Of a stretch of 64,000 bases of DNA, positions 3,786 through 22,694 are shown piece by piece. Under the pieces are notes generated by a model, which saw nothing but the letters and a program-made list of their open reading frames with translations, was not told where the DNA came from and did not search any database. The stretch's first letter is position 1, and each line of letters begins with the position of its first letter. Position numbers and translations under genes: made by a program. This DNA is from Alphaproteobacteria bacterium. Its GTDB lineage: Bacteria > Pseudomonadota > Alphaproteobacteria > UBA6615. The stretch covers positions 142,561 to 206,560 of the forward strand of contig JAJFIX010000045.1 of the NCBI GenBank assembly GCA_021774575.1, in the 5' to 3' direction.

Positions 3786-4256
3786 TTAGGCCGCTTCTTC
3801 GCACATTGACGGGTCGGATAGGACTAAATCCTCGACCAAATTAAGTAATTGCGACGGCAGGAACGGTTTTGACAGCACTCTATCGGCGCCGAGGCTTTTC
3901 GCCATTTCCAGGAACGAGAGATTTCCAGTCCGTCCACCGCCCGACATGGCGACAATCTTTACGTCATTGCATAAACGGCGCAATTCCAAGATCGTCTCTA
4001 TACCCTCTTTTTCCGGCATCATAATATCGGTCACAACGATGTCGGGTAGAGCCCTTTCAAAAACCTTCAGGCCATCCACACCATTGCACGCAGACTCAAC
4101 ATCATACCCGTTCTCGGCCAAAATATCGCAGACAGTCGCACGCATTTCCTCATTATCCTCAACGACCAAGGCTTTTAACCGCTGCTCGGTCTCCGATTTT
4201 TCATATTCGGACCGGAGGATTTCAGTACCATCCTCGACCCTGAAATAGTTCGCCAT
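3786..4256 (-). CDS. Single-domain response regulator (CheY-like receiver) with a roughly 30-aa N-terminal extension
   Basis: REC motifs are present (VVEDNEEM, VVTDIMMPEKEG, SKPF). I chose the start at MANYF because GGGAGGG lies 5 bp upstream. The longer ORF-track start at 4274 lacks an RBS. Confidence 0.8.
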   Translation of the reverse strand: MANYFRVEDGTEILRSEYEKSETEQRLKALVVEDNEEMRATVCDILAENGYDVESACNGVDGLKVFERALPDIVVTDIMMPEKEGIETILELRRLCNDVKIVAMSGGGRTGNLSFLEMAKSLGADRVLSKPFLPSQLLNLVEDLVLSDPSMCEEAA

Positions 4257-4634
4257 AAAACCCTCCCGTGGCAAATTTTACCTGATTTTGCGTAGACGAC
4301 GGAAGCGCGGTATCGGCACCAAATTTTGGATTGAAATACTGATACCTTAAATACCTTAAAAAACATTACATAAAAATTACCAAAACTTTATGCGGTGTGT
4401 ATTTGCGAAATATCAAGATTTGATAAAAGTTTTTAACAATTGAACAATATTTCCCCTCGGCGTCGGACGCCCAATTGACCAAAGGGTCTTTGCTAATTCC
4501 GACACCCGTTAATAAATCGGTAATCACTTTAGACATATTTTAAAATATGGATAGCACCATTTATATAGTCTCTTTGTATTGTCTTAGGATCCTTTAACGG
4601 CAATTTCGCTCGATATTTTAGGAACGCATCGCCA

Positions 4635-5834: not shown

Positions 5835-6288
5835 CGGGATCAAAAACCATACAATAACCATCGTAATGGCCGATGACGATTGCGATGACAGAATGTTAAC
5901 GCGTGAGGCCCTAAACGACAGCAATCTTCTAAATGGATTTGATGAAGTCGAAGATGGCCAGGAACTTATGGATTATTTGCGCCGGACCGGTTCCTACAAG
6001 AATCTTGCCGGAACACCGCTGCCCGGGCTTATTTTGCTCGACCTAAATATGCCGCGCAAAGATGGGCGCGAGGCCTTAAGTGAAATTCGAGCCGATCCGG
6101 ATTTACGGAAAATTCCGGTTGTTGTTTTAACAACGTCCAAGGCGGAGGAAGATATTGCGCGAACTTATGATCTCGGCGTGAACTCTTTCATTGTTAAGCC
6201 AGTCTCGTTTGATGCCCTAACAAAGACAATGCGTGCATTCACCCAATATTGGGCAGAAGTCGTCGAACTTCCTAGACTTAGTGCCTAA
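5821..6288 (+). CDS. Single-domain response regulator (Rcp-like receiver)
   Basis: 155 aa; acidic pocket MADDDCDD, phospho-acceptor context LLDLNMPRKDG, and T/K motifs. Overlaps the upstream kinase by 14 bp. Confidence 0.85.
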   Translation: MTQHSGIKNHTITIVMADDDCDDRMLTREALNDSNLLNGFDEVEDGQELMDYLRRTGSYKNLAGTPLPGLILLDLNMPRKDGREALSEIRADPDLRKIPVVVLTTSKAEEDIARTYDLGVNSFIVKPVSFDALTKTMRAFTQYWAEVVELPRLSA

Positions 6289-6298
6289 GGAGCAAAGA

Positions 6299-7966
6299 AT
6301 GTCGAAGCCGGTACATGTTCTGTTAGTCGAAGACGACGAGGACGATTACATCCTGACCAAGGGCATGTTGATGGACTCACCCATTCGGCGATTTGAGATC
6401 AAATGGGTCGCTGATTACGACGAAGCCGTCCAGGTGATAAAATCGGCGAAATTCGACCTCTATCTGATCGATTATCGTCTTGGCAGAAAAGACGGGCTAG
6501 ACTTGGTGCGCGAAACAATCGCAGCCGGGTGCACGGCTCCTATAATTTTGCTAACGGGCCTGGATAATCGAGATATTGACGTCGAAGCAATGGAGGCCGG
6601 CGCCGCCGATTACCTTGTTAAGGGCCAAATGTCGCCGCTCATTCTGGAGCGCTCCATTCGATATGCGCTTGCTCGCCAGAATCACTTGGCAACAGAGCGA
6701 AAATCTAAGGAGATGCTCGAAAAAGCAAATAAACGCCTCGCCGAGCTTTACGAAAAAGCGCATCAGTCCGTCGATAACGTCTCCCACGAATTCCGGACGC
6801 CGCTCACCGTAGTCAAAGAATATAGCTCGATTTTACGCGACGGGCTGGGTGGCGAGATAAACGAAAAACAAAGGGAATTTCTGACAATCATCCTCGACAG
6901 GGTCGACGACTTGACCTTCCTGGTAGATGACATGCTCGACATCAGCAAACTCGAGGCCGATTTACTTTGCATTTATCGTCGGCGCACGCGCTTAAGCGAC
7001 GTTATCGACCGAATTCGCCCTATTCTTGAACGCAAGGCATTGGCCAATAACGGCAAACTAAAAATTGAAATTGACGACCCCGAACCATTCATTTATTGCG
7101 ATGGCGAAAAAATCGGTCGGGTCCTCATTAACCTCGCGGTCAATGCATATAAATTTTCAGGCGAGGGCGGCGTTGTCTCGATCATCGCCAAAGTCGACCG
7201 GGAAAGATCCGATCTGTGCGTTTCTGTTAGCGACAATGGCCCAGGTATTTCGCCAGAACAACTCCAACCCATATTTGACCGGTTCCAACAAGGAGATAGC
7301 CAGACCCGAAGTGCGACAAAGGGCTTTGGGCTTGGGTTGAATATTGCCAAAGAATTAGTCGAATTAAATTACGGCAATATTTCCGTATCTAGCGAAGTCG
7401 GAAACGGCAGTTGCTTTAGCTTCACTGTGCCCATTTTCGACCCGCTAACGGTTTTTGAACGCTATACCAGCGGCCTGTTACTGTCGGGCAACGGTTCTGC
7501 CGCTATCTCTCTAATTTCCGTAGGATTGGAACCAGGTGCGGATTTGGCGGGTGTCGAGGAGATAGAGCAAATCTTGCAAGTCCAATTGCGGCGGCACGAT
7601 TTACTCTTTGAGACGGGACCGAGCAAATGGGTCCTATGCTCAGCAGCGGACAATTCCGGCCCAGACCTTGTAATCGAAAAAATTTCAGAAGCCATAACAC
7701 AGGCTAATTCGTTCCTTCCCGAAGATGAATTGCCCCCTGTGTCGCTCAACATCATTGGGACATGGAAAGTACCAGGCGATATCGCCGGATTGTTTGCCCG
7801 ATTTAATCAAATTCGCGCTGCCGACGCCGGGAATAACAGCCATAACACGCACACGGAATTTGTGAATACCGCAACGTCAGACCTGCCGATTCCGTCGTTA
7901 CAGATTGAATTAGCTGGTAGCGAAAATGGACCAACACCAAATATAGGCGGCGAAATTGGAAGATAA
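6299..7966 (+). CDS. Response regulator-histidine kinase hybrid (REC-HisKA-HATPase) with an uncharacterised 180-aa C-terminal domain
   Basis: N-terminal REC (LLVEDDEDD, LIDYRLGRKDG), H-box SHEFRTPLT, and HATPase G-boxes (DNGPGIS, GFGLGLNI). The C-terminal 180 aa match no motif I recognise. AAGGAG precedes the 6299 ATG. The ORF-track start at 6233 is upstream of the stop of the previous gene. Confidence 0.85.
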   Translation: MSKPVHVLLVEDDEDDYILTKGMLMDSPIRRFEIKWVADYDEAVQVIKSAKFDLYLIDYRLGRKDGLDLVRETIAAGCTAPIILLTGLDNRDIDVEAMEAGAADYLVKGQMSPLILERSIRYALARQNHLATERKSKEMLEKANKRLAELYEKAHQSVDNVSHEFRTPLTVVKEYSSILRDGLGGEINEKQREFLTIILDRVDDLTFLVDDMLDISKLEADLLCIYRRRTRLSDVIDRIRPILERKALANNGKLKIEIDDPEPFIYCDGEKIGRVLINLAVNAYKFSGEGGVVSIIAKVDRERSDLCVSVSDNGPGISPEQLQPIFDRFQQGDSQTRSATKGFGLGLNIAKELVELNYGNISVSSEVGNGSCFSFTVPIFDPLTVFERYTSGLLLSGNGSAAISLISVGLEPGADLAGVEEIEQILQVQLRRHDLLFETGPSKWVLCSAADNSGPDLVIEKISEAITQANSFLPEDELPPVSLNIIGTWKVPGDIAGLFARFNQIRAADAGNNSHNTHTEFVNTATSDLPIPSLQIELAGSENGPTPNIGGEIGR

Positions 7967-8372
7967 ACCGACCGTCGTCGTCATTGACGATGACCTTCAC
8001 ATTACCGAGGCCTTGAGCCTCCGGCTGACTATGGCCGGGTGTAATGTACGAACCGCCGACAACGGCTATGCTGGCCTCGCCCTGATCAGCGAATGCAACC
8101 CGGATGCTGTTGTGCTCGACTTATCTATGCCTCAGATGGACGGAATAACAGTATTGACCAGTCTAAACGATAGCGGCCTCAACGAGGTCATCCCAGTCGT
8201 AGTTCTTACAGCTAGAGTCTCTGACAAGGTCAAACGAAGAGTAATGGAACTTGGCGCATATGGCTTCATCCAGAAACCTTATGACGCCGAATATTTGGTG
8301 ACAACATTGCAATCGGCAATTAGCAGGGGCCATCAGGATATGTCGCCAATGTCATTCACAGCACGGGGATAG
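7956..8372 (+). CDS. Single-domain response regulator
   Basis: 138 aa; VVVIDDD, VVLDLSMPQMDG, KPY. Apparent TTG start overlapping the hybrid kinase stop, so the start is uncertain. Confidence 0.75.
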   Translation: MEDKPTVVVIDDDLHITEALSLRLTMAGCNVRTADNGYAGLALISECNPDAVVLDLSMPQMDGITVLTSLNDSGLNEVIPVVVLTARVSDKVKRRVMELGAYGFIQKPYDAEYLVTTLQSAISRGHQDMSPMSFTARG

Positions 8373-8376
8373 CGTT

Positions 8377-9315
8377 ATGCCTGATCAAAAAACTGTTTTC
8401 ATTGCCGCGCACGATCCGCAATTTCTGCAACAAATTACCAAGCGCTGCGCAGGTCTTGGTCTGGACGTGCACTCGGCGTCAGACGGCATGGATGCGTTAT
8501 GGCAAATATTGAACGGTCAATTTGGATTGCTCATTCTCGATTGCGATATGCCGGGCACGGATTGGTTTGACCTTGCGGAAAAATTGAAGATAAAAAGTAG
8601 TCAAAAACCGGTTTCCCAACCGATTCCCAAACCAATTCCCATCGTCGCCCTTGGTCAAGATTCCGAGCAAGACCATGAAGAGCGCTGGGCTGCTTTAAAC
8701 GCCTATTATTGCCATAAGGGCCTTGATACCTGGGCCAATTTGCGATCCATTATTTCCAAAGAATTCGACCTTCAAACACCCGGCTCGTGCATAATCGACA
8801 CGGTTCCTGTACTCGAGACCGCCCCTGTTCGACCGCCTAAAATTCTCGTCGTCGATGACGACCTCCGAATCACGGCTGTGATGAAATATCGGCTTGAGGC
8901 ATTTGGCCTGACGGTGTTTCGGGCCAAAGACGCCACCGAAGGCGCGGCAATGGCGGTAAAGGAACTTCCAGACCTCATTATCACCGACTACAATATGCCG
9001 GGAGGTAGTTCCGGCGAAAATATGGTCTTTACTCTGAAGAGAATTGAGACAACCAAGAACATCCCGGTCATTGTCGTCACGGGCCAAAATATGGACGGGC
9101 GAACCGACTTTGTGCTGCGCCGTGAAATGTTAGGCAGGGGCGGGGCGCAGGCCTACCTGGAAAAACCATATGATTTTGACCAACTGGTCGCTGAAATACG
9201 AAAATTGATCCGTATTCCGGAAAAAACCGACGCCCCTGTAGCTCCCCAGTCAAAGGCGAGCACACAGAAAGAAGCGCATGGTTCGCCAGCAACGCTGTTA
9301 GCTGTCGGCAACTGA
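8377..9315 (+). CDS. Tandem-receiver protein (REC-linker-REC) with no output domain
   Basis: 312 aa. The C-terminal REC is canonical (ILVVDDD, IITDYNMPGG, KPY). The N-terminal REC-like domain is divergent (ILDCDMPGTD). The linker is Pro-rich. Confidence 0.75.
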   Translation: MPDQKTVFIAAHDPQFLQQITKRCAGLGLDVHSASDGMDALWQILNGQFGLLILDCDMPGTDWFDLAEKLKIKSSQKPVSQPIPKPIPIVALGQDSEQDHEERWAALNAYYCHKGLDTWANLRSIISKEFDLQTPGSCIIDTVPVLETAPVRPPKILVVDDDLRITAVMKYRLEAFGLTVFRAKDATEGAAMAVKELPDLIITDYNMPGGSSGENMVFTLKRIETTKNIPVIVVTGQNMDGRTDFVLRREMLGRGGAQAYLEKPYDFDQLVAEIRKLIRIPEKTDAPVAPQSKASTQKEAHGSPATLLAVGN

Positions 9316-9393
9316 CTTAGGGGAAATATTCCATCTGAGAAGACGGCGAAATTATATTTTCGGCGAGCGGCCGGATCGAATAATCCTTCGCCC

Positions 9394-9906
9394 TTATTCG
9401 TATTGGATCAATACCGCGAGGACGCCAGAGTAGTTGCCCGCAGGCTGGCCGGAGCCTAGATTGAGTGTGGCGCCAATCCTAATAGCGTATTGAAAATCGG
9501 CCGAATCTATTATGCCGTGGGATAGAGAAAAATTCTCCGCCGTTAAACTGTCATTTCCCGACCATAGGACCACCATTTGCACCGGTAATTTTATTTGGTA
9601 CCTGCTGTAGCCGCCGATCGAGCCAAACATTGCTGGTCGACCGCCGGCAATTTCACTGACACTGCCAGAACTATGAATTTTCGCGTCGGCGCCGATCGTC
9701 AGCGTTCCGCCTCCCACGCCGGAAACAATATGATTAACGCTGAGATGCTGTAGGGCGACGACTGACGTCGTTTCGAAAACTTGGACCGTTGCCGTGCCCG
9801 TTGCAGTCGCACCCGCCCAAACGGAAGCAATACTCGCATGAACACACACGGCGGCAATGATTGCGCCAAGCTGAAGCTTACCCCGTATTTTCCTGCAGAA
9901 CACCAT
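9394..9906 (-). CDS. Secreted beta-rich protein, DUF4402-like (SCPU/Csu-pilin-like fold family)
   Basis: 170 aa with a signal peptide. Gly/Thr/Ser-rich with a C-terminal ...GATLNLGSGQPAGNYSGVLAVLIQYE motif resembling DUF4402. No adjacent chaperone or usher. Confidence 0.45.
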   Translation of the reverse strand: MVFCRKIRGKLQLGAIIAAVCVHASIASVWAGATATGTATVQVFETTSVVALQHLSVNHIVSGVGGGTLTIGADAKIHSSGSVSEIAGGRPAMFGSIGGYSRYQIKLPVQMVVLWSGNDSLTAENFSLSHGIIDSADFQYAIRIGATLNLGSGQPAGNYSGVLAVLIQYE

Positions 9907-10061
9907 CGCAAATATATTTGGCCTTCAACAATTTCTGGGCGGAAAGAGCTCGAAAATGCTTATATGGCACCGTTACGATATCATGGCCTTGTGTGAGCAC
10001 TTTCGTTCAACTGTTAAAATTTATCTAACAGAAATTTAAGAGATCAGGCTTGAGCTAAATA

Positions 10062-13000
10062 TTACTCGTGCGGCCCCAGCCTCGCCCGAATTCGCTTTGC
10101 CAATTCCGCCTTACTATAGGGCTTACGCAATAGGTCTCCCACAAGTTCAGCGCGAAACGTCGAATCACCTAATTCTTGCTGAGACCAATCCGCAGCAAAG
10201 CCCGATGTGAGCAATATTTTTATATCCGGACGCGCCCTATTTGTGTCCATTGCAAGACGAAACCCATCGATTCCGCTCGGCATGACGATATCGGTAAATA
10301 ATAAATCAATTTTTTCCGGCCCACCAATAATCTCAAGGGCTTGCTTACCATCGCTTGCCGCAAGCGTGTCATACCCCAACTCAGTCAAATGCGAGACGGC
10401 AATATCGAGTAGATCCTCTTCATCTTCGACGACAAGGATAACCTCACTACCTTGAGGCAGCACCTCTTCGTTTTTACTCTCGATCTCCGCCTCATCCGAG
10501 AGCCCGATTGCTCGGGGCAAAAAGAGTCGAAACACCGTGCCTTTCTCGAGTTCGGACTCCAACTCAATATGACCGCCGGAACGTTCGACAAACCCATACA
10601 CCATACTAAGGCCTAGGCCAGTTCCTTTACCTCTCGGCTTCGTCGTGAAAAATGGGTCAAATATACGCTCGCGGAGTTCTTCGGCTATGCCCGTACCCGT
10701 ATCGGATACCGAGACCATGACAAATTCTCCGGGCCGACTTCCTGGATGACGTTTTACATATTCCTGGTCCAGCACTTTATTGGCAGTCAAGAGTTTCAGC
10801 GTGCCGCCATCAGGCATAGCATCGCGGGCATTTAATGTAAGATTGACGATTACGTCATCAAAATCCCCCGGATCAAAATCGGCATTCCATAAATCTTGGG
10901 ATAGCTGAGTAATCACCGCAATCCCAGAGTTTCCGGATTTAGAAATCATTTCTCTAAGATCGAGCAAGCATTTGTTCGCCGATGAAATCTGTTTTCCAGA
11001 GGAGGTAACACGCGAAAAGCTCAGCAGTCGCTCGGTAAGCGCGGCACCACGATTAACCCCCCGAAGTGCGGTCTCAATATGTTTCATCGCCACCTGATCT
11101 TCGGATCTAATCACTTTTAACAATTCCAAATTTCCCATGACGATACTCAAAATATTATTGAAATCATGGGCAATCCCACTCCCCATTTCACCGACCGCCT
11201 GCATTTTTTGCGCATGGTATAGCTGTTCGTCATGGGCCCTTTCGTCGGTTATATCGTGCAAAACACCAGTGGCACGAGTTGCTTTTCCGTCTTCGTCACG
11301 CAAGCATTTTGCTTGGGTTTGAAATAGACGGTAACTACCATCTTTTTTCCGCAATCGATATTCGCACGACCATGTGTTCTCACCTCCGTCGAGAAAGGCT
11401 TCAAATTCTTTGATAATGCGAGGACGTTCTTCAGGGTGCAAATGCGCCCTTAACGTATCTTGGCTGGAGCTAAGTTCACCAATGTCATAGCCCAGCATTT
11501 CGCCAAATCTCTCGGAGAAAAACATCTGCTTTCTCGCGACTTCTAAATCCCAGACCGCGTCCGAAATGGCACCCGTCGCCAACCGGTACCGTTCCTCATT
11601 TTCCTGCAGGGCGGTGGCAATTTTTCTCTGCTGTGTAATATCGGTTGAAATGGTTCCGACATATTGGATATTGCCATGCGCATCATGTATCGGAAATTTT
11701 GTCGCCTGAATTGCAATTTCCTCACCTTCGTTTTGCCACGATATGACACGCATCATATCTACCCCGGTGCGAAAAACTTGCTCATCAAAACCGGCCGATG
11801 CTGTGGCTAAAGGATGCTCGGAAACATTGCGCGGATTTTCCCAGAGCGCTTCATTCAAACCAATGCCCAGACGCTCTCTCGCAACGGCGTTGGCGATTTT
11901 CAAATCACCCTTTCGGTCTTTTACACTGATGCCGGTCGGCGCATTATCCAGGATTGCAGCCAGAAGTCCCTCACTTTCCTGGCGCGCGAATTCGGCTTCT
12001 TTCAACTCCGTAACATCGCGCCCTGTTGACTGATATTCCGCAATTTCTCCATTTGCCCCGGGAATTGCCGTAACCAGCCATTGATACGCTCGCTTCTCTC
12101 CATCCGCGCGAGTCAATACGCCGTGAAAAGTTATCGGTTCTGAGCCCGGCTTAATCTGCGCAATACTCGCCATAAATCTTTCCCGATCGGCCGGTTCCAT
12201 TCTCTGGCCGAACGGTGTGCCAACCAGTTCATCGAAAGATTTTTGATAGACCCGCTGATAGGCCAAATTGACGAAGCTGATGCTTTCGTCGGGCCACCAG
12301 CGGCTTACGGCCTCCTGCTGGCTATCGACAACGGCACGATAGCGCCCATCACTTTTTTCCAGGGCGCCAGTCGTTTTCATATGTTCCGCTATTTCGGCCG
12401 TAAGCGCCTCCTTACTCGCTCGCTCTGAAATTACTCTGTTAACGGTTGACGCAAATAGAAAAGCAAGGGCGATGCCAAGCACTGCGAAAAGGTTTCGGGC
12501 TACGCCCGTGTTCTCAACACCATGTTCAAGGGCTAAGGCTTGCCAAAAAACAAACGTAATAGTCAGAATTGCCAGGGCAGAAGATATGCCAAGCCAATGC
12601 GGAAATCGCACCAAATTATGCCGCGCTGTTTGCCAGGCAAGAGCCAACAATCCGACGCCCAAAGCAACAAAGCCCAAGGACGTATGCAATGCCATGCGAG
12701 TGAATCGCCCCCAGCCATATGCCCCTTCGAGCCCGACTACATAGCCGAGTGTGGCAACAGTTCCTAGGCCCAGAACTGCCGATCCAATTAATCCAAGGAG
12801 TAGTCCGTCGCCGCGACCTTTATCTATTTTCGATAATAGAATTGCGGCGGCAACAAGCATGAACGATAGGGCGGTATTTGGCGCCATTCGGCCCGGATGC
12901 GAGGTTTGCACGGTTACATAGTGCTGCATCAGAAACTGATCAATGCCCAGGTCGATACTAAAAACATACTGAGATATGGTTAGAAGCCCGAGCGCCATTA

Positions 13001-13247
13001 CGGTCACCGCAAGACCTGTTGCCAGTCGATCTTGCGCAATGACTAAAGCAGTCAGCGCCAGCCCACTCAATACAAATCCAAGAGCCGTATTGTATTGCAT
13101 AGGCACGAGGGCAGGGCTCAATTGAACGAGCAAAACAGAATGGGTGTGCCAGCCAATAAATGCCACAAAGCCCAAAAACGCTGCCATTCCTCCGGCAACG
13201 AAACCAAGAATTCTGTATTTTTCAGTCGAGCAATTATTAAATCTCAT
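10062..13247 (-). CDS. Hybrid sensor histidine kinase: polytopic membrane sensor domain, multiple PAS, HisKA, HATPase, C-terminal REC
   Basis: 1061 aa with about 8 predicted TM helices at the N-terminus. H-box [21 protein letters not shown]-boxes, and a C-terminal receiver ([24 protein letters not shown]). Confidence 0.9.
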
Positions 13248-13312
13248 GGACCCAAAAATCTATTATCCAGAAAAGACCAAATGAGTACGTACGCCCGCCT
13301 ATTTTGCCCCTT

Positions 13313-15934
13313 TCACCCTTCCTTAATGGCTTCGGTGTCCAAAGCCTGCCTCACTTGGATTGCCAGCTCGCCTCGACTATAGGGCTTGTGTAATAAATTA
13401 CCGGATAGGTTTGCACGAAATTCCGATTCGCCATGTTCACTTTCAGCCGGAGAAACGGCAAAGCCCGATGTGAGCAATATTTTTATATCTGGTCTTATTT
13501 TTTTCGCATTCTCCGCCAACTGAAAACCGTCGACTCCATTGGGCATTACGACATCGCTAAACAGCAAATCAATCCCTTGGGGCCCACGAATTATTTCAAG
13601 CGCCCGCGCCCCTTCATGCGCAATCAAGGTCCGATAGCCGAGCCCTTCCAAATGAGAGACAGCAACGCTAGCCAAATCTGCCTCGTCGTCAACGACCAAA
13701 ACCGTTTCGGTCCCTTGGGGCAAATTTTTGGCCTCCAACTTCCCCCATACCGCAGACTCTCCCACACCGATCGCCCGAGGCAAATAGAGACGAAACGTCG
13801 TCCCTCTTCCCGGTTCGGAATATACTTTTATGTGACCGCCGGATTGTTCCACAAAGCCATAGGTCATGCTGAGACCAAGGCCCGTGCCTTTTCCCCGTTC
13901 TTTAGTTGAGAAAAATGGCTCAAATATTCTTTCCTTGACGTCATTTGTCATGCCCATGCCGGTATCGCAAACGGACACCATAACAAATTCCCCGGCACTG
14001 CTTCCTGGGTTTAATTTTGCATAATCTTCGTCCAGCACCTTATTTTCCGTTTCGAAAGTCAAGATGCCACCATCGGGCATCGCATCACGGGCATTTAGGG
14101 CGAGATTGACAATGACGTCACCAAATTCCCCGGGGTCGAATTCAGCAGCCCATAAATCATCGGCAAGTTTATTGGTCACGTTGACACCGACAGTCACAGA
14201 TTTTTCGATCATGTCCTGAAGTTCAATGATGCACTGGTTTGCCGATGTTCTTATTTTCTTCTTTGGTTCAACACGTGAGAACCTGAGCAGGCTTTCGGTC
14301 AGCGCAGCGCCGCGAGAAACGCCCCGTAGAGCCGTATCAATGCGATTCAGCGCCTTCGAATCGTCGCGACAATTTGATTTTAGAAGTTCTAAATTTCCAA
14401 GAACTATACTGAGAATATTATTGAAGTCGTGGGCGATGCCGCCACCCAACTCGCCGACCGCCTGCATTTTTTGTGCATGATGCAATTGTTGCTCATGGGA
14501 TCGTTCATCGGTGATATCTCGCAAAATCCCAGTAATACGTTCTACTTCACCCTTATCGGATCGAACTAGCTGGGTTTTGACCGAAAACAGCCGATATCCA
14601 CCGTCCTTTTTTCGCAAACGATACTCGCGGGTCAAGTAAGCCTGATCACCGGCTAGGAAGGCTTCGAAATGACGAATAATTTCGTCGCGCTCATCTGGAT
14701 GCAGTAGCGACCTCAATGTCTCGGCTTCCGATGGGAGCTCGCCTAAATCGTAGCCAAGCATTTCCCCAAGCCGGTCGGAAATATATGTCTTGCCGTCGGC
14801 TACGGTCCGATCCCAAATCGCATCGGATGATGTTGTGGCTGCGAGTCTGTAGCGTTCCTCGCTTTCTTGAAGGGCCGCCTCGATATTCTTCTGACGGGTA
14901 ATGTCCCGCCCCACACCTTGATACTCAACCGGTGCCCCATTGCCGTCAAAAACAGCAGTGATATTCCACGAAAAATATTGGGCTTCACCGTCTGTCCCAA
15001 AGATCTCTGTTTCCACTGTGAGCGGGCCTGAACCTGATCTCATTTCCCTAATCGAGCGAGATACGGTCACTCGATCCACCGGGTTTACCTGCTGACCGAT
15101 GGGCTTTCCAATGAGTTTTCGGGAGGGCAGGCCATATAATTTTTCATATGAGGTGTTTACAAAACTTAGTGTTTCATCGGGCAGCCAGCGGCATATTATA
15201 TCTGACTGGCTATCGATAACCGCACGATACCTATCCTCGCTTGCGCGCAACCGATTTTCGGCGCCGCTGATCTTGGCCACAACATAGGATAGGATTAGGA
15301 GCCCGATACCGACACCTGCCCAAAACACGAGATTTATGACCAACCGGATATCGGATTGACTATCTTTGCCCCCTGCCTCAAATTCAGCCGCTTTATTTGC
15401 TGCAAATATGATCAGAATATCCATTGCGGCAGATAGATCGGTAATATAAGCCGTTTGCGTCTCAGAATTTAAGGCCTTTGCCGCCAACTCACCTTTTGTG
15501 CGAGCAACTTCGACAATTTCCACATTCTGCGATTCCCAGCTATTAAAAATTTCCACAACATTTTCGACATTCGATATGTCGCCGAGAAACCGCCCCCGAA
15601 CAATATCGATATTGGCAAGAAACTCGGCCTTCGCCATTTGCATATCTCGTATCGCCGCATCAAATTCGTCGTCGTTCCGAGATACGATTGAGCGTTCCAA
15701 ATATATTTGTATATGGGCAATATTAGTGTTGGCTTGCAGCAATGCATTACTGACCGCAAGCGGGTGATCATAGATGCGGGTTGTCAGGTCGGCCAAATTA
15801 TCAATTCGGCGGACTGTCCATATCTGCACGCCTATCGCGATCAGTGCCAGGACCGCAAAGCCAATAACCGCCCCCCGCACAATCGGGTTTATAGAACGGC
15901 GCATCACGAACATATTTCCTTTATCCTCCGTCAA
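13313..15934 (-). CDS. Hybrid sensor histidine kinase: TM, periplasmic helical sensor, TM, PAS x2, HisKA, HATPase, REC (paralog of the upstream kinase)
   Basis: 873 aa with two TM segments flanking a roughly 180-aa periplasmic domain. From the PAS region onward it is about 60% identical to the 10062-13247 kinase. It also shares a 32-bp identical DNA tract with it. Confidence 0.9.
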   Translation of the reverse strand: MTEDKGNMFVMRRSINPIVRGAVIGFAVLALIAIGVQIWTVRRIDNLADLTTRIYDHPLAVSNALLQANTNIAHIQIYLERSIVSRNDDEFDAAIRDMQMAKAEFLANIDIVRGRFLGDISNVENVVEIFNSWESQNVEIVEVARTKGELAAKALNSETQTAYITDLSAAMDILIIFAANKAAEFEAGGKDSQSDIRLVINLVFWAGVGIGLLILSYVVAKISGAENRLRASEDRYRAVIDSQSDIICRWLPDETLSFVNTSYEKLYGLPSRKLIGKPIGQQVNPVDRVTVSRSIREMRSGSGPLTVETEIFGTDGEAQYFSWNITAVFDGNGAPVEYQGVGRDITRQKNIEAALQESEERYRLAATTSSDAIWDRTVADGKTYISDRLGEMLGYDLGELPSEAETLRSLLHPDERDEIIRHFEAFLAGDQAYLTREYRLRKKDGGYRLFSVKTQLVRSDKGEVERITGILRDITDERSHEQQLHHAQKMQAVGELGGGIAHDFNNILSIVLGNLELLKSNCRDDSKALNRIDTALRGVSRGAALTESLLRFSRVEPKKKIRTSANQCIIELQDMIEKSVTVGVNVTNKLADDLWAAEFDPGEFGDVIVNLALNARDAMPDGGILTFETENKVLDEDYAKLNPGSSAGEFVMVSVCDTGMGMTNDVKERIFEPFFSTKERGKGTGLGLSMTYGFVEQSGGHIKVYSEPGRGTTFRLYLPRAIGVGESAVWGKLEAKNLPQGTETVLVVDDEADLASVAVSHLEGLGYRTLIAHEGARALEIIRGPQGIDLLFSDVVMPNGVDGFQLAENAKKIRPDIKILLTSGFAVSPAESEHGESEFRANLSGNLLHKPYSRGELAIQVRQALDTEAIKEG

Positions 15935-16065
15935 AAAAATTGGAGGGAAAATTTACTGTCGCGACCGGTGCGATACGGCCTTGTAAGTTCGAGCCTTGAT
16001 AGCTGGGTTAAGATATTGAGATACGGTTGCGCTGGCAATGGCCGCCCATTACTCATCATCACCGG

Positions 16066-16815
16066 CTATGCAGCTGCTATTCCGCCACCGGGTCCTTGTC
16101 CGACATGAATTCTTCCACCGCCTGCTGGATTGATACCCAAGGGGTCGCGCAACCGATACCCATACCCCCACACAGTTTCAATGTAGTCGTCCCCACCGAG
16201 GTTGTTCGAAAGTTTTTTGCGTAGGTTGCAGATGAACACGTCAATGACAGTCTCATCATGTGATTCGGCCCCCTCATAGAGATGCTGAATGAAGGCCAGC
16301 TTCGCCAAAATTGTCCCGCGCCGCATACTAAGCAATTCAATAATTTTATATTCCGTGGCCGTCAGATGAATGAAACAATCGTCGATTTCGACGGTGCGCG
16401 CTTCCAAATTTACCCGCATCTTGCCGACCTCGACAATCGACGTCGAATGCCCGCGAAACCGGCGAACGAGAGCTTGGATGCGCGCGATAAACTCGCGCTC
16501 ATCAAATGGCTTGGTTAGGCAATCATCCGCGCCAGCATTAAACCCCTCAATTTTAAAACCAATGCCCGACGAATCCGACATTATGAGGATTGGCGTGTCG
16601 TTTTTGACCATCCTCAACTTCTTTAGGAGTTCGTAGCCAGGCATGCCATTCGAACCAAGATCCACAACGATAATGTCATAGTCCTGCAGCTTATTGATTT
16701 CCACATTACTGTCATTCAGCTCGTGCGAATGGCAAATGAACCCAACCGACGTTAACATCGACGGGACAACATTTTCCTTCACCGACCCCTCAAAGAACAG
16801 CAAAGCCCTCATCAA
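16066..16815 (-). CDS. CtrA-family (OmpR-type) response regulator paralog with a degenerate receiver acidic pocket and a Gly-rich C-terminal tail ending AAA
   Basis: 249 aa, collinear with CtrA. Shared blocks include DVFICNLRKKL, IETVWGYGYRLRDP and TATEYKIIELLSMRRGT. The N-terminal LLFFEGS replaces the conserved LLIEDDS. The C-terminus is ...GPGGGIAAA. Confidence 0.75.
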   Translation of the reverse strand: MMRALLFFEGSVKENVVPSMLTSVGFICHSHELNDSNVEINKLQDYDIIVVDLGSNGMPGYELLKKLRMVKNDTPILIMSDSSGIGFKIEGFNAGADDCLTKPFDEREFIARIQALVRRFRGHSTSIVEVGKMRVNLEARTVEIDDCFIHLTATEYKIIELLSMRRGTILAKLAFIQHLYEGAESHDETVIDVFICNLRKKLSNNLGGDDYIETVWGYGYRLRDPLGINPAGGGRIHVGQGPGGGIAAA

Positions 16816-16859
16816 AACCTCCTTTTTCGCCCACAGACCCTCCGTAAGAGTGTGAGCAA

Positions 16860-17199
16860 CGCCCCCCCCAAACTAGAGTAAAACGACTTGCTTGAATGAC
16901 TGTAGCGGGAGAATGTGCATCCAATTTCCTACAAATGTGAAAAAATTATTAAAATTTTTTCCGGCCAATTATCGAAAAGAAATAAACACTCACCATTATT
17001 TAACCATTTGTTTATATTTGTTATTAAAATAAAAATGATATTTTAACTATATAATAACAATTACATTAAAATAAATAATAAAATTTTTTACATTAATACT
17101 ATTGCAATTCTTTTATACGAAAACATCATACACCTTTTGTATTGGTGCAACAGTTAGGTCCTATCCTGATATTGTCGCTAAAGCAGAGGGAATTTTCGG
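16860..17199. other. Extremely AT-rich intergenic island (about 15-20% GC) forming a divergent promoter region
   Basis: Long A/T runs (aaaaaattattaaaatttttt, ttattaaaataaaaatgatattttaac, and others). No ORF. Flanked by about 55% GC coding sequence. Confidence 0.8.
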
Positions 17200-18321
17200 A
17201 TGAAAAATTGGGAAGAGGCCACCTCCAAAATGGACGAAACAAATGCATGTTTCGGCATTCGGAAAATCTTTCCGGCTGGTCTCGGGCTGCTATTTGCCAC
17301 CACAGTTGCATTCGGCGTGGCACATGATACGTCGCTCTCAGTCTCAGTTGCCTCGACAAACATCGATCAGCATTCAACAAGCGGCCTGAATGTTGCAGCG
17401 TTTGCGAATGCCGGCGGCTCAGAAATATTGACACCTTTTAGCGCCGCTCAATTGATTGATTGGCCAAATAACAGCGAACAAATAAGCCATGGCATCAAAA
17501 TTGGGATGATTGACGGAGGCGTCAACAAGAACCATCCGGCGCTACACAACCAGGATATTACGACGCGAGAATTCACAGCAAACGGCGCCACACCAGTCCA
17601 ATTGGACCATGGGACCGCCGTTGCGTCCCTTCTTGTCGGCAACCCAAGCACCGGAGACCTGCGCGGGTTACTACCAAATGCCACCCTATTTGCGGCAAAT
17701 ATTTTTAGCCAAGACCGGAATGGGCGCATTATCGGAGACCCAATGGCTTTTTCGAACGCCATCGATTGGCTTATCGATATGGACGTTTCAGTCATCAATG
17801 TCAGCCTTACCGGCAAAACCAACGGCCATATGGAGCGCGCGATCAACAAAGCAGTGGAGCACGGCATTCTTGTGGTCGCCGCCGCCGGAAACAATCGAGG
17901 CAATAGCGGTCGAGACTATCCCGGCGCCTATCGAAATGTCCTGGCGGCAACCGCGGTTGATGCGGATCTGAATATTTATGCCTATGCAAGTCTTGGCAGT
18001 CACGTTGATTTCGCCGCACCGGGGGTTTCCCTACGAATGGCCTCCAATAGTGGATCGGAAGTATTAAGCGGAACGTCGTTTGCCGCGCCATTTCTCACCG
18101 CCACTGTCGCGCTGTCGTTACGAGACCAGGGCGCGATCAACGCCAGCACCATTCGAACACGGCTTTCAAATACGGCCAGGGACCTCGGTAGGGCCGGGCT
18201 CGACCAAGTTTTTGGGTACGGTCTGCTTGATGCCACCAGCAATGAAGGCTTGGTGGCCCAAGTTGACCGGAGGCCTAGCCGGGTCACCCCGATAGGGGCC
18301 CGCAGGTTAACAGCGAATTAA
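17200..18321 (+). CDS. Subtilisin-like serine protease (peptidase S8), secreted or membrane-anchored
   Basis: 373 aa. Catalytic triad contexts IGMIDGG (Asp), DHGTAVAS (His) and GTSFAAPF (Ser). A hydrophobic segment sits at residues 24-40. RBS GAGGGA. Confidence 0.85.
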   Translation: MKNWEEATSKMDETNACFGIRKIFPAGLGLLFATTVAFGVAHDTSLSVSVASTNIDQHSTSGLNVAAFANAGGSEILTPFSAAQLIDWPNNSEQISHGIKIGMIDGGVNKNHPALHNQDITTREFTANGATPVQLDHGTAVASLLVGNPSTGDLRGLLPNATLFAANIFSQDRNGRIIGDPMAFSNAIDWLIDMDVSVINVSLTGKTNGHMERAINKAVEHGILVVAAAGNNRGNSGRDYPGAYRNVLAATAVDADLNIYAYASLGSHVDFAAPGVSLRMASNSGSEVLSGTSFAAPFLTATVALSLRDQGAINASTIRTRLSNTARDLGRAGLDQVFGYGLLDATSNEGLVAQVDRRPSRVTPIGARRLTAN

Positions 18322-18495
18322 ACGAGGTAAACAACACCAACCTCGATAATTACCCGAATGAATTAGACTATCCCGGTTCTTTCGTAATTTCCCCAAGTAC
18401 TTAGATCGATTAAATCATTGTCGACCATCGCTAGAGGATCAGCCTCGGTGCCTGCGCTTCGACAAATGACGGATTAGCTTGGAAAGGACGAACAA

Positions 18496-19176
18496 TTGCG
18501 TGCTCTCATTATTGAAGACGACATTGCGATGGCACAGAGCATTCGCATGACCCTCGAGTCAGATGGCTTCACCTGCGCCAATACCGATCGCGGGCGGGAC
18601 GGCATCTATATCGCCGCAGCGCAAAAATACGACATCATCGTCCTTGACCTGATGCTACCCGATATCGACGGCTACAAAGTATTATCTTCCCTTAGGGGAA
18701 AGAAAAACTCCACGCCGGTATTGATGCTTTCGGGATTTGATGATGCCGATAAAAAGATTGATGGACTGAAAGCCGGGGCCGACGATTTCCTCGGCAAGCC
18801 TTTCAATGCGAGGGAATTAATCGCCCGCGCGCGCGCGATCATTCGCCGCTCTGAAAGGGCAGCTGATACCGTCGTTAAGACAGGAAAAGTAAGCGTCAAT
18901 TTGACCGCTCATACTGTCGATATTGGCGGTAGGTTGCTGAGATTGGCGAGCAAGGAGTCTAGTCTCCTCGAATTGCTCAGCAAGGATAAGGGGAAAATAG
19001 TTTCCCGAGCGACCATCAGCGACCATCTATACCCTGGCACAAACGGCCCCAACGACCTGAGGATCATTGACGTTTTTGTCAGCAAGCTGCGAAAAAAATT
19101 GTCCCGAGCAACGGACGGTGAGACCCATATCGATACATTGTGGAAGCGCGGCTATGTTCTCCGCGATCCCGTTTAA
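18496..19176 (+). CDS. CtrA-family (OmpR-type) response regulator paralog with an intact receiver
   Basis: 226 aa, collinear with CtrA across both domains (MRALIIEDD, IIVLDLMLPDIDG, KPF, IIDVFVSKLRKKL, WKRGYVLRDP). I estimate about 45% identity to canonical CtrA. Confidence 0.8.
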   Translation: MRALIIEDDIAMAQSIRMTLESDGFTCANTDRGRDGIYIAAAQKYDIIVLDLMLPDIDGYKVLSSLRGKKNSTPVLMLSGFDDADKKIDGLKAGADDFLGKPFNARELIARARAIIRRSERAADTVVKTGKVSVNLTAHTVDIGGRLLRLASKESSLLELLSKDKGKIVSRATISDHLYPGTNGPNDLRIIDVFVSKLRKKLSRATDGETHIDTLWKRGYVLRDPV

Positions 19177-19188
19177 AAGCCAAAACAG

Positions 19189-19914
19189 CTATAATTTGGT
19201 CACCGTCGCAGAGAAAATATAGCCGACCCCGCGAATAGTTTTGATGATTTCAGGGTGCCTGGGATCCGGTTCAATTTTTTTCCTCAATCGACTCACTAGC
19301 CCGTCGATACCGCGATCGAAACCTGCCCATTCACGACCATGGACGTTGTTGAGAAGAGAGTCTCGCGTATGGACCCGCTGTGGCGCATCGGCTAATGCGC
19401 GAAGAAGCTCGAATTCTGCTGTGGTGAGGGGGGTATCCGTACCCTCCGGCGATCGAAGATTTCGAGCCGCCAGATCGAACTGCCAGCCGCAAAACCCCAG
19501 CACGGTTCGCCCTTCTACTCCATGGGGGTTTCCGTTGTGAGAGGTGCCAATTTTTCGACGGCGCAGAACCGCATTGACCCGCGCCACTAATTCGCGGGGA
19601 CGAAACGGCTTCGTTACGTAATCGTCAGCACCAAATTCCAGTCCCAGAACATGGTCGGTCTCGCTCGTTCTACCGGAAACAATAATTATACCGGCGTCAG
19701 ATCGATCACGAATTTCTTTGGCCAAGGCGAGTCCGTTATCGTCTGGCAACGCCAAATCCATCAAGTAAAGGTCGATACCACGCTCTTTTTCAAGGGCGCG
19801 AAATTCCGCCGCATTTTTCGCCGATAAAATACGATGGCCTTCCCCCGCCAAAATACCACTAATGAGCTCACGGACATCCGGGTCATCTTCGGTAATTAGG
19901 ATAGTGGCCTTCAT
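19189..19914 (-). CDS. OmpR/PhoB-family response regulator (REC plus winged-helix), orphan
   Basis: Start chosen at MKATILITEDD, where GGAGAGG lies upstream. Receiver motifs and a C-terminal trans_reg_C (LTTAEFELLRAL, IKTIRGVGYIF). No adjacent cognate kinase. Confidence 0.8.
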   Translation of the reverse strand: MKATILITEDDPDVRELISGILAGEGHRILSAKNAAEFRALEKERGIDLYLMDLALPDDNGLALAKEIRDRSDAGIIIVSGRTSETDHVLGLEFGADDYVTKPFRPRELVARVNAVLRRRKIGTSHNGNPHGVEGRTVLGFCGWQFDLAARNLRSPEGTDTPLTTAEFELLRALADAPQRVHTRDSLLNNVHGREWAGFDRGIDGLVSRLRKKIEPDPRHPEIIKTIRGVGYIFSATVTKL

Positions 19915-20051
19915 GTCCTCTCCGCGCCAATCATGGCGAATTATTCGAACAGTCATTTATCTTACTGATAATTAGTGTTTACTATACCATCGGCATTTTA
20001 GCAAAAATTATTGAAATCTTCGATTGCCCGCGAATGCCTCTCTGCCAAGGC

Positions 20052-20450
20052 TCATTCTCCGTTACCATCAACTGTATCGGCGGCATCGAGTAACTTCCTA
20101 ACAGTCGAGGTTAAACGATCAATTGTGTATGGCTTTGGCAAAAACTCGACACCTGCACCAGAAAGCTTTTGGGTAACCTGCTCGCTATCTGTGTAGCCTG
20201 AGGTGTAAATAACCCTAATATCAGGAATGCGATCGCGCACGACCTGCGCGACATCGATACCGTTCATTCCTCCCGGCAGCATCATGTCCGTTAATAGAAG
20301 ATCAATCTTGGGGGCCCCATCCAGCATCGCAACAGCTGACGGGCCATCCTCCGCCTCGACAACGGAATAGCCAAGTGTGGATAGGACAGTCGCCATATAC
20401 GCCCGGACGTCAGGGTCGTCCTCAACGACAAAGATCGTCTCTCCGGACAT
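20052..20450 (-). CDS. Single-domain response regulator
   Basis: Start chosen at MSGETIFVVEDD, where GAGGAGAGGAAG lies upstream. LLLTDMMLPGGMNG and KPY. Confidence 0.8.
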   Translation of the reverse strand: MSGETIFVVEDDPDVRAYMATVLSTLGYSVVEAEDGPSAVAMLDGAPKIDLLLTDMMLPGGMNGIDVAQVVRDRIPDIRVIYTSGYTDSEQVTQKLSGAGVEFLPKPYTIDRLTSTVRKLLDAADTVDGNGE

Positions 20451-20777
20451 AAACTTCCTCTCCTCGGCAAAACCAAACACTATATATTTTCACTACGTTT
20501 TCACAAAACATCGCCGGGATTCGCAATATCTCATACATAGCGGCACCGGCGTTACAGACCATGAAGGCAGTCACTTAAGACAGGTACAATAGCATAGGCC
20601 AGCTTGCTTCGTCTCAGTGAAGTTTCCAGTGCGCTCTCGGAAAAAGAGAATTCGAATTTGCCTGGAACACACTATCAAGTGCGAGTCGTACCGCATCCAG
20701 CCAAGTCGCGTCGCCTAGGCCTTCTCGCCGGTGGTGATCAGGAGTGTGCATCAATTCTATTCATCTTTCTCGGTTTA

Positions 20778-20798
20778 CAATCGATTGCCAAATCGATT
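20778..20798. promoter_or_regulatory. Candidate LacI-family operator: 10-bp perfect palindrome CAATCGATTG followed by a second AATCGATT
   Basis: Read directly, about 40 bp upstream of the LacI gene start (20828). Central CG as in LacI-family operators. Confidence 0.3.
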
Positions 20799-20827
20799 AC
20801 GTTCACATTCGGGAGGGCAAAGTGCCG

Positions 20828-21886
20828 ATGGTAACGATATACGATGTAGCTAAAAAGGCGGGCGTTTCGGCGACGACCGTAAGTCATGTCGTTAACGGAA
20901 CGCGGACGGTCGCGCCGACGACCGAAAAGAAAGTCCGGGATGCCATCCGGACATTGAAGTACCGCCCCAACGTTCTTGCACGGAGCCTCCGCCAGAGTCG
21001 GTCCAACGTCATCGGACTGCTCCTGCCGGACTGTCGCAACCCCTTTTATGCTGAACTCGCCCGATCAATTGAGGAACGTGCCTATAAGTCCGGCTATTCC
21101 GTGATGATATGCAATTCCAGCTATAACCAGGACCGTGAGCGGGAGTATGTTGAAACGCTGGCGAACGGCCGAGTCGACGGCCTCATCGTCGCCCCGCTAC
21201 GATCCAAATCCGAAACAATAGATGCCTGTCGCGACCGGGGCTTGCCGACCGTCGTTGTCGACCGGATCTCTGATTCCGTTTTGGTTGATCAAGTTGTCAT
21301 CAACAACGAATATGCAGGCGCCCAGGCTGCCAAATATTTGCTGAAACTTGGCCACCGCCAAATTGGCTGCATTACCTATCTCGAAAATTGGACAGCCACA
21401 GCCGACAGGCGCCTTGAAGGGTTTCGCCGAACCCTGAATGAGGCAGGCGTGGATTTGCCCGATGACGCTGTCGTCTATTCAGATTTTCAATTCCTCGGCG
21501 GCCAGGCTGCGATGGAAGAATTATTGACGAAGGGCCCAATTCTGACCGCTGTCTTTGCCTGTAATGATTTGATGGCCGCAGGCGCATTAATTGCGCTGCG
21601 GCGGGCCGGTTTCCGAGTACCTGACGATATCTCTGTTCTGGGATTCGACAACAGCATTGAGGCCGTCATTACGTCTCCGGCGCTGACCACTTTTAGTCAG
21701 CCTATCGCTGACCTGTGTGGCGCCAGCGTCAATCAATTATTGCAGCTCATGAACGGCGAGACAAATAGACCGCGTCGCCACGTCTTTAACGCCCCGCTTG
21801 TTGAGCGTGAAAGCTGCGCGCCACCTCCTTCCAATACCAAGCCTCGCGGTAAAGCGGGCGTCGCAGTTATGGATAGCAAGGGTTGA
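20828..21886 (+). CDS. LacI-family transcriptional regulator
   Basis: HTH MVTIYDVAKKAGVSATTVSHVVNG plus a periplasmic-binding-fold sugar sensor domain. GGAGGG RBS. The ORF-track start at 20744 is an upstream artefact. Confidence 0.85.
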   Translation: MVTIYDVAKKAGVSATTVSHVVNGTRTVAPTTEKKVRDAIRTLKYRPNVLARSLRQSRSNVIGLLLPDCRNPFYAELARSIEERAYKSGYSVMICNSSYNQDREREYVETLANGRVDGLIVAPLRSKSETIDACRDRGLPTVVVDRISDSVLVDQVVINNEYAGAQAAKYLLKLGHRQIGCITYLENWTATADRRLEGFRRTLNEAGVDLPDDAVVYSDFQFLGGQAAMEELLTKGPILTAVFACNDLMAAGALIALRRAGFRVPDDISVLGFDNSIEAVITSPALTTFSQPIADLCGASVNQLLQLMNGETNRPRRHVFNAPLVERESCAPPPSNTKPRGKAGVAVMDSKG

Positions 21887-21890
21887 TCAT

Positions 21891-22694
21891 ATGGTAGCGA
21901 CAGGTAAGAGAAAATCCGAAACGTCGTCGCAGCGGCCAATAATTGAGGGTCGCGGCATTAGCAAGTTTTTTGGCGCGGTAACGGCGCTGAATGACGTCAG
22001 TTTCGAACTCTATCCGGGCGAGGTTTTGGGCATCGTCGGCGATAATGGTGCCGGCAAAACTACCTTAATGAAAGTCCTCTCCGGACTTTATAAAGCCAGC
22101 GAAGGCGATCTATTGTTCGAGGGTCAACCGGCTCATTTCAATAGTCCGAAAGATGCCCGCAAATTGGGCATTGAAATGGTCTATCAGGATTTGGCTTTGG
22201 CTGGCAACATGGCGATTGCCGAAAACATTTATCTCGGACGAGAGCCAAGAAACAAATTCGGTTTCTATCATCTCGGCGCGAGCCAAAAAATGGCGCGAAA
22301 GCATCTCAGCAATTTAAAAATCCACGTCAAGTCGGTGGATCAGAAGGTAGAGGAACTGTCCGGAGGTCAACGCCAGGCAGTGGCAATTGCCCGGGCCACC
22401 GCATTCGACGCCAAGGTCGTCATCATGGATGAGCCAACCGCAGCATTGGCAATCAGGGAGGTCGGCAAGGTCCTCGACCTGATCAAAAACCTCAAAGATC
22501 GCCATATTTCCGTCATTCTGATTTCCCATCGCATGGACGATATTTTTTATGTGTGCGACCGGGTCGTCGCACTATTCCAAGGGACGAATTTCGCCGAGTC
22601 GCCGCTTGAAGACACGTCACGAAGCGAGGTGATCGGGTGGATTATGGGAACTAAAGAAAACCCGGGGGAGCTTTCCCATGACCGAGTCGAGTGA
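21891..22694 (+). CDS. Sugar ABC transporter ATP-binding protein (single ABC domain)
   Basis: Walker A GDNGAGKTT, signature LSGGQRQ, Walker [11 protein letters not shown]. Start at MVATGKRK follows the LacI stop. Confidence 0.85.
   Translation: MVATGKRKSETSSQRPIIEGRGISKFFGAVTALNDVSFELYPGEVLGIVGDNGAGKTTLMKVLSGLYKASEGDLLFEGQPAHFNSPKDARKLGIEMVYQDLALAGNMAIAENIYLGREPRNKFGFYHLGASQKMARKHLSNLKIHVKSVDQKVEELSGGQRQAVAIARATAFDAKVVIMDEPTAALAIREVGKVLDLIKNLKDRHISVILISHRMDDIFYVCDRVVALFQGTNFAESPLEDTSRSEVIGWIMGTKENPGELSHDRVE

Follow-up and report, generated by a model that had tools for sequence, protein, structure and literature searches.

CtrA is viewed as one highly conserved master regulator, with an activity set by phosphorylation and timed proteolysis. 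In Caulobacter and Sinorhizobium meliloti changes to the last residues stabilise the protein, the C-terminal tail being what targets it to ClpXP (PMC4433202). Residues 167-191 of CtrA are reported to be highly conserved in the alphaproteobacteria; within this region Thr168 and Thr170 reportedly determine the class of promoter that is chosen, and T168I is a characterised suppressor allele (Delaby et al., PMC6847485). We found no divergent CtrA paralogue described in the searchable literature. Here we analyse a 64-kb window (64,000 nucleotides, numbered from its first letter) of contig JAJFIX010000045.1 from an alphaproteobacterial assembly (GCA_021774575.1), which carries at positions 18496-19176 of the + strand a gene, here named winA, for a 226-residue response regulator. 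Our analysis indicates that winA descends from CtrA and is not a member of a generic OmpR subfamily. It is a real and rare CtrA-derived regulator with informative changes, set beside near-canonical plasmid-borne copies of ctrA that are already known.

Like the CtrA proteins of Caulobacter crescentus, S. meliloti and Brucella abortus, winA consists of two domains and is of almost equal length, and it closely matches these proteins in its recognition helix (..IIDVF..KLRKKL) and its wing (W.RGYVLRDP). Unlike CtrA, it reaches only 48-57% identity where orthologues share 77-85%, it has residues 167-176 replaced, carries Y155S and a loop longer by one residue, has no C-terminal tail, and lies in a different gene neighbourhood. 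Generic OmpR/PhoB regulators, among them those represented by the PmrA/BasR, DrrD, PrrA and KdpE structures, share the fold but are 28-36% identical to winA and are without the CtrA signature HLY..(loop)..IIDVF.CKLRKKL...IETVWGRGYVLRDP, most of which winA retains.

Relationship of winA to CtrA

As read from the sequence and the listing of open reading frames (ORFs), winA starts with TTG, stops with TAA and is preceded by a ribosome-binding site, GGAAAGGA (18481-18488, + strand), 7 nt 5' of the start codon. From this start the encoded N-terminus, MRALIIEDD, matches the MRVLLIEDD of CtrA residue by residue. Public records contain the protein both in the 226-residue form and as 209 residues beginning at an internal ATG (P0001); the shorter call, which cuts off the acidic pocket, is probably wrong. 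Pfam and AlphaFold both give the layout of the OmpR/PhoB family, with an N-terminal receiver (Response_reg, PF00072, 98 bits, residues 4-112) and a C-terminal winged helix (Trans_reg_C, PF00486, 62 bits, residues 147-222). The AlphaFold model, made with a 60-sequence alignment, has a mean pLDDT of 86.5 and was matched by Foldseek to OmpR-family structures with a probability of 1.0 over full-length alignments; sequence matches in the PDB extended down to E 1e-37. The DNA of winA is 100% identical in two Logan read-set assemblies, and the organism is represented in the read sets SRR15505515 and SRR15505518. Horizontal transfer was considered from composition and set aside, the signal being unclear: the GC content at third codon positions (GC3) of winA is 0.60, like that of the remaining window, and is lower in the kinases alone.

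The best NCBIfam match of winA is the CtrA model NF045991 (268.4 bits, E 5e-80), with the second-best family, a heavy-metal regulator, about 100 bits lower at 165.8 bits. NF045991 is an equivalog model with a curated orthologue cut-off of 350 bits, and winA falls under it. Because of this score, and because several hallmarks of CtrA are gone, we describe winA as CtrA-derived and not as CtrA proper. Global identity was 48.0% to Caulobacter CtrA (a reference validated by its NF045991 score of 410.2 bits), 49.8% to S. meliloti CtrA (the sequence of an annotated record) and 50.2% to a plasmid-borne CtrA from Methylobacterium; among themselves these three share 77-85% identity. In a search of 5.8 billion proteins the nearest full-length neighbours among the best 120 matches were canonical CtrAs with 55-57% identity, many of them labelled CtrA by their source, and the sole closer sequence was winA itself. 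An earlier reading of this DNA, made from the sequence alone (the sequence-only reading), had estimated about 45% identity to canonical CtrA, which is close though slightly low, and had put conservation among canonical CtrAs above 75%, which is a fair description of the three references. Its description of the protein as collinear with CtrA agrees with our end-to-end alignment, which contains a single insertion of one residue.

The sequence-only reading had also proposed phylogeny as the check on descent. Sequences for a tree were drawn from 1.84 billion cluster representatives, scanned exhaustively with HMMER. Besides canonical CtrAs they included numerous divergent singletons of the CtrA-like type and those non-CtrA regulators that lay closest; Escherichia coli OmpR and PhoB, Thermotoga maritima DrrD and an OmpR-like regulator from the window itself were added as outgroups. 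The tree was built by neighbour joining from Kimura-corrected distances with 100 bootstraps. A CtrA-like clade of 86 sequences, which includes both CtrA-like genes of the window, was monophyletic with respect to 16 outgroup sequences in 82 of 100 bootstraps, and winA lay inside the span of the most recent common ancestor of canonical-scoring CtrAs in 83 of 100. A generic OmpR subfamily, the placement that the sequence-only reading had named as its refutation, is therefore not where the tree puts winA. Measured from root to tip, the branch of winA is 0.59 long, compared with a canonical median of 0.34, and its fine placement is uncertain because this is a distance tree with long branches. Many divergent CtrA-like singletons are present in metagenomes.

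The closest relatives of winA form a very small subfamily. A profile built from winA with the clusters P0122, P0392 and P0208 brought in no more than three additional clusters (P0394-P0396, 337-359 bits). Among 5.8 billion proteins the subfamily comprises about six sequence clusters; its members score 337-433 bits with this profile and canonical CtrAs at most 298 bits. The four founding sequences grouped together in 100 of 100 bootstraps. Traits common to the subfamily are the one-residue insertion between helices α2 and α3 and the motifs KGKI(V/I), SGF and DFL.KPFN. The other members (MCZ6605142.1 and MCZ6763750.1, representing P0122 and P0392 and derived from alphaproteobacterial metagenome-assembled genomes (MAGs), with P0208 and P0394-P0396) are 44-55% identical to winA. 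Unlike winA they lack GADD, the basic residues of KLRKKL and the tryptophan of the wing, and they carry C-terminal tails; winA is the most CtrA-like member of its subfamily. The genomic contexts read for two members contain a Tad pilus gene and genes for peptidoglycan-binding and SH3 proteins, with no synteny to winA.

Plasmid-borne copies of ctrA resemble winA in being additional members of the CtrA family that lie away from the classical chromosomal locus. The copy on plasmid 3 of Methylobacterium bullatum (WP_056160229.1; 6001-6702 of that record, L007) is near-canonical, with 85% identity to S. meliloti CtrA; it is the one plasmid copy that we compared, and the others carry the CtrA annotation of NCBI. 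By comparison with it, winA is a much older or faster-evolving derivative. Annotated ctrA genes occur on small Methylobacterium plasmids (37-67 kb), on a Mesorhizobium plasmid and on Azospirillum chromids, a copy-number variation that is little discussed. A 3.72-Mb S. meliloti record labelled 'plasmid pSymB' (CP090106.1, L006) carries ctrA, chpT, cpdR and fliJ and looks like a mislabelled chromosome. When 22 kb of the window was compared with plasmids by megablast, no match was obtained.

Conserved and altered regions of the protein

The receiver (residues 1-118; 18496-18849, + strand) was aligned with regulators from Caulobacter, Sinorhizobium and E. coli. Compared with CtrA, PhoB and OmpR its phospho-acceptor site is complete, with E7-D8-D9, D51 (codon 18646-18648), S79, F98 and K101 all aligned, which bears out the sequence-only reading's claim that every catalytic residue of the receiver is present. 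With this set of residues the receiver should accept a phosphoryl group on D51. The model of the receiver superposes on the B. abortus CtrA receiver (4QPJ_C) with an rmsd of 1.9 Å at 52% identity. The residues of CtrA that contact ChpT have been defined from the 4QPJ complex (PMC9981736), and at the contact positions on helix α1 three of five are identical in winA (D9, A11 and S15), the other two being changed (L18M and M19T).

As a basis for comparison we took the 162 alignment columns with at least 95% conservation across a set of 121 canonical CtrAs, 79 in the receiver and 83 in the DNA-binding domain; Caulobacter and S. meliloti CtrA belong to this set, and the Methylobacterium plasmid copy was compared besides. 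The conserved residue is present in winA at 105 of the 162 columns (57 of 79 in the receiver and 48 of 83 in the DNA-binding domain). The corresponding figures are 132 for Caulobacter CtrA (57 and 75), 141 for S. meliloti CtrA (64 and 77) and 141 for the Methylobacterium plasmid copy (67 and 74).

The winged-helix domain of winA (residues ~125-225; 18868-19170, + strand) was examined both in this comparison and in an alignment with PhoB and OmpR. Its recognition helix, DLRIIDVFVSKLRKKL (residues 186-201), is conserved, with K188R and C195S the only changes, and the wing differs from that of CtrA solely by G216K. The hydrophobic core pattern is retained. In helix α2, which positions the recognition helix, every residue is replaced: TTLTKEMFLN of Caulobacter CtrA (167-176) has become KIVSRATISD, with T168I and T170S among the substitutions. 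The one-residue insertion lies in the α2-α3 loop, a loop that contacts RNA polymerase in the PhoB/OmpR relatives, and in helix α1 of the same domain Y155S removes an aromatic side chain.

At the C-terminus winA ends two residues past GYVLRD and the tail is missing. Canonical CtrAs (n=115) continue for 9-27 residues past this motif; 99 of them end in Ala, and 54 in Ala-Ala.

Genes and regulatory sites around winA

A second CtrA-derived gene, winB (16066-16815, - strand; NF045991 263.9 bits, and alignments), lies 1.68 kb from winA. In winB the acidic pocket E7-D8-D9 has become F-E-G and the LPD loop is lost; D51, S79 and K101 are retained, and T168I and T170A are both present. The protein has a 26-residue tail ending ...GGGIAAA, reminiscent of the ClpXP tag of CtrA, and it forms its own singleton cluster (P0247) in a clustering of 15 billion proteins at 50%. 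winA and winB are 41% identical and were sisters in 4 of 100 bootstraps, figures that rule out a recent tandem duplication as the source of the pair. The sequence-only reading had taken winA, together with its degenerate neighbour, as the sign of an expanded CtrA family: two CtrA-derived genes 1.68 kb apart do stand, but not as products of local tandem duplication. Its label of paralogue likewise holds as to family and intact receiver, whereas paralogy as such is something we infer, the window being without a canonical ctrA.

Two hybrid histidine kinases follow winB on the - strand in the order winB, HK2, HK1, with gaps of 131 and 65 bp. HK2 (13313-15934) has a 4HB sensor, PAS, HisKA, HATPase and REC domains in Pfam and scores 383 bits with PRK13557 and 326 with CckA; HK1 (10062-13247; Pfam and NCBIfam) is its duplicate, 60% identical over 542 residues, as the sequence-only reading had recognised. 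Both have a CckA-class core with an HDFNN H-box, scoring 348-383 bits with PRK13557 and about 327 bits with the CckA model, against a cut-off of 1000. It is winB and not winA that lies immediately upstream of the kinases on their strand, winA being on the opposite one. The suggestion that one of these kinases could be the cognate kinase of winA has a gap, in that a gene for ChpT or another histidine phosphotransferase (Hpt) is absent from the window: Pfam scans across the cluster, including unassigned stretches, found no Hpt domain, and a six-frame search of the 64-kb window found no canonical CtrA, ChpT or CpdR. Because most of the ChpT-contact residues are kept, the housekeeping relay would be at least as plausible a phosphodonor for winA. 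The two kinase genes share an exact coding repeat of 32 bp (10195-10226 and 13458-13489). A Logan contig from SRR15505518 (L005) joins window position 10226 to 13458 across this repeat and drops one kinase, which reflects either an assembly collapse at k=31 or a real recombination or deletion variant in the population.

On the other side of winA, and convergent with it, is an OmpR-type response regulator (19189-19956, - strand) with its best NCBIfam matches to OmpR, TorR and ArcA and a CtrA score of 99.6 bits; it is not CtrA-like and is 28% identical to winA. It is followed by a single-domain receiver (20052-20480, - strand) that shows weak similarity to CpdR (69.4 bits against a cut-off of 180) and to the receiver of CckA (PRK13557 99.6 bits, CckA 82.8). 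The whole two-component cluster (3786-20480) is unusually dense, with four histidine kinases and some 12 receiver domains. It includes a REC-only ORF at 7974-8369, missed by ORF lists of at least 150 residues, next to a double-REC protein at 8377-9315, and a DUF4402 protein (9394-9906, - strand) that separates the cluster of receivers from the hybrid kinases. The GC content of this signalling island is 0.47-0.53, compared with 0.55-0.59 in the right half of the window. The usual neighbours of ctrA (fliJ/fliI, chpT and cpdR), as judged from the S. meliloti ctrA locus and the ctrA locus of one MAG, are absent at winA, where kinases, a subtilase and sugar-uptake genes are found instead.

Upstream of winA lies a CtrA-type box, TTAACAGCGAATTAA (18307-18321), a perfect match to TTAA-N7-TTAA 175 nt 5' of the start codon. 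It is the sole exact match in the 64-kb window, for which 0.75 are expected, and the probability of at least one box in the 196-bp stretch upstream of winA was 0.007 in dinucleotide shuffles; boxes with one mismatch are not enriched in the window (18 against 17.8 expected). The box overlaps the stop codon of a subtilase (peptidase S8) gene directly 5' of winA (17200-18321, + strand; Pfam Peptidase_S8, E 1.9e-39). This gene and winA are possibly co-transcribed, and no terminator-like site was found between them on the + strand. The best NCBIfam match of the peptidase, which sits between winB and winA, is a type VII secretion mycosin, below cut-off at 148 bits. Between winB and the peptidase-winA unit is a divergent promoter region of 384 bp and 32% GC (16816-17199), with AT-rich direct and inverted repeats at 17006-17086 and the only TTAACCAT half-site of the window (17000-17007), whose local P of 0.05 is marginal. 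The promoters of ctrA itself contain sites bound by CtrA (PMC4433202), and control of winA by CtrA or by winA itself seems a reasonable inference from the box. A scan for sigma-70 promoters and terminators around the locus gave counts not above those of shuffles, and an Rfam scan of 15.8-20.8 kb gave no match.

Function of winA, its host and the wider window

On balance we favour the view that winA is a working, phosphorylation-dependent OmpR-type factor that evolved from CtrA and serves as a lineage-specific accessory, not as the cell-cycle master regulator. That it is an accessory copy beside a canonical ctrA we regard as very probable, a view that fits the equally divergent second copy, the lack of a degradation tail and the unusual gene neighbourhood. 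In the mechanism that we envisage, winA would be phosphorylated on D51 by an Hpt protein whose gene lies outside the window. The simplest donor would be ChpT, supplied by CckA, with the neighbouring CckA-class hybrid kinases possibly also feeding ChpT and through it winA. Phosphorylated winA would then dimerise and bind CtrA-type boxes (TTAA-N7-TTAA), as predicted because the DNA-reading helix is almost unchanged. The read-out at these boxes would differ from that of CtrA because the part that sets the promoter class (Thr168 and Thr170) and the loop that touches the polymerase have both changed, and winA, lacking the C-terminal tag, would escape the ClpXP proteolysis that clears CtrA in each cell cycle. 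Expression of winA may be controlled through the upstream box, either by the canonical CtrA of the host or by winA itself.

Several points weigh against this view. The altered helix α2 and Y155S could change or weaken DNA binding, and the loss of the basic recognition-helix residues in the relatives points to a possible drift of the lineage away from CtrA boxes; no orthologue of winA is closer than 53%. The statistic for the CtrA box is post hoc and based on a single site. The status of accessory paralogue is argued from evolutionary rates, for a window without a canonical ctrA. The AlphaFold model is of low confidence in the α4 region (residues 83-92), the tree was made by neighbour joining on corrected p-distances and not by maximum likelihood, so that long branches may be misplaced, and Rhodospirillales-like sequences are over-represented in the canonical reference set.

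It is very unlikely, in our judgement, that winA is instead the sole true CtrA orthologue of a deep-branching lineage and runs its cell cycle. In its favour, the window contains no canonical ctrA, divergent CtrA orthologues of similar score do exist, for example in a Rickettsiaceae MAG, and the host has no close sequenced relatives. The Edd protein of the window (47655-49469, + strand) is relevant on both sides of this question. Its best match among the 5.8 billion proteins, leaving aside the copy from its own contig (P0271), is 71% identical, with matches in Kaistia, Ciceribacter and Kiloniellaceae; such a distance is in keeping with an isolated host, but 71% in a metabolic enzyme also speaks against acceleration across the proteome. 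CtrA is normally more conserved than Edd in such alphaproteobacteria and is about 80% identical even between orders. A sole orthologue is likewise hard to reconcile with two distinct CtrA-like genes 1.7 kb apart and equally far from CtrA, with an NCBIfam score under the orthologue cut-off, with the complete replacement of residues 167-176, which are near-invariant between orders, with the loss of the degradation tail, or with a locus free of fliJ/fliI, chpT and cpdR. From its proteins the host appears to be a deep-branching alphaproteobacterium that is not generally fast-evolving. A search of contigs from other genomes with the winA protein found, among the contigs scanned, only unrelated receivers of 28-36% identity. 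P0095 was considered as the host's canonical CtrA and rejected, having come from other samples.

A different role, as terminal regulator of the neighbouring sensory cluster with a new DNA specificity and no functional tie to the CtrA regulon, is unlikely but deserves some weight. winA does lie within a cluster of four kinases and about 12 receiver domains at 3.7-20.5 kb, its helix α2 is rewritten and Y155 is lost, and its relatives have diverged in the recognition helix. However, the recognition helix and wing of winA itself are nearly those of CtrA, a perfect CtrA box lies upstream of the gene, no Hpt in the window connects the hybrid kinases with winA, the kinases follow winB on the strand opposite to winA, and the subfamily relatives do not share this clustering with kinases. 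Decay to a functionless duplicate is least in keeping with what we see, and we consider it extremely unlikely: the long branch of winA, its near-orphan state in databases and the loss of the acidic pocket from winB would fit, but winA has an intact reading frame preceded by a good ribosome-binding site, the catalytic residues, recognition helix and core pattern are all retained, the fold is modelled with confidence, and two independent read sets give the same sequence.

More speculatively, the accessory role that we favour could extend to the whole locus as a self-contained auxiliary CtrA-like module, although we would not expect this to be the case. HK1 and HK2 would sense the environment and charge the degron-less winA through ChpT or another Hpt, winA would occupy CtrA boxes outside the proteolysis clock, and winB would act as a phosphorylation-independent or decoy partner. 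Were this true, the environment could override or bias the CtrA regulon. If winA is functional at all, it would be a natural separation-of-function allele in which DNA reading and phospho-acceptance are kept, the proteolysis tag is lost and the promoter-class surface is changed. It could then reveal access to the CtrA regulon outside cell-cycle control, as well as the residues that govern promoter choice (168, 170 and the α2-α3 loop). Automated annotation may label genes of this kind 'CtrA' or 'response regulator', and a sub-cut-off NF045991 score together with a missing tail are simple flags that separate CtrA orthologues from derivatives. The significance is limited in that the subfamily is extremely rare, expansion of two-component families is itself unsurprising, and the case is built entirely from computational analysis.

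The rest of the window encodes functions of sugar metabolism, including xylAB and edd, and ABC transporters. The best matches of Edd are split between Hyphomicrobiales and Kiloniellaceae, as for an alphaproteobacterium without close sequenced relatives. At the left end of the window two adjacent genes of the MauG/di-haem cytochrome c peroxidase family (1-2756, - strand), the first of which passes the window edge, are followed by a flavoprotein gene at 3031-3603. To the right of the signalling island, the longest ORFs of a LacI-type regulator (20744-21886) and an ABC ATPase (21798-22694) overlap by 89 nt; these long starts are probably wrong, the public calls (L009) starting later and giving proteins of 352 and 267 residues.

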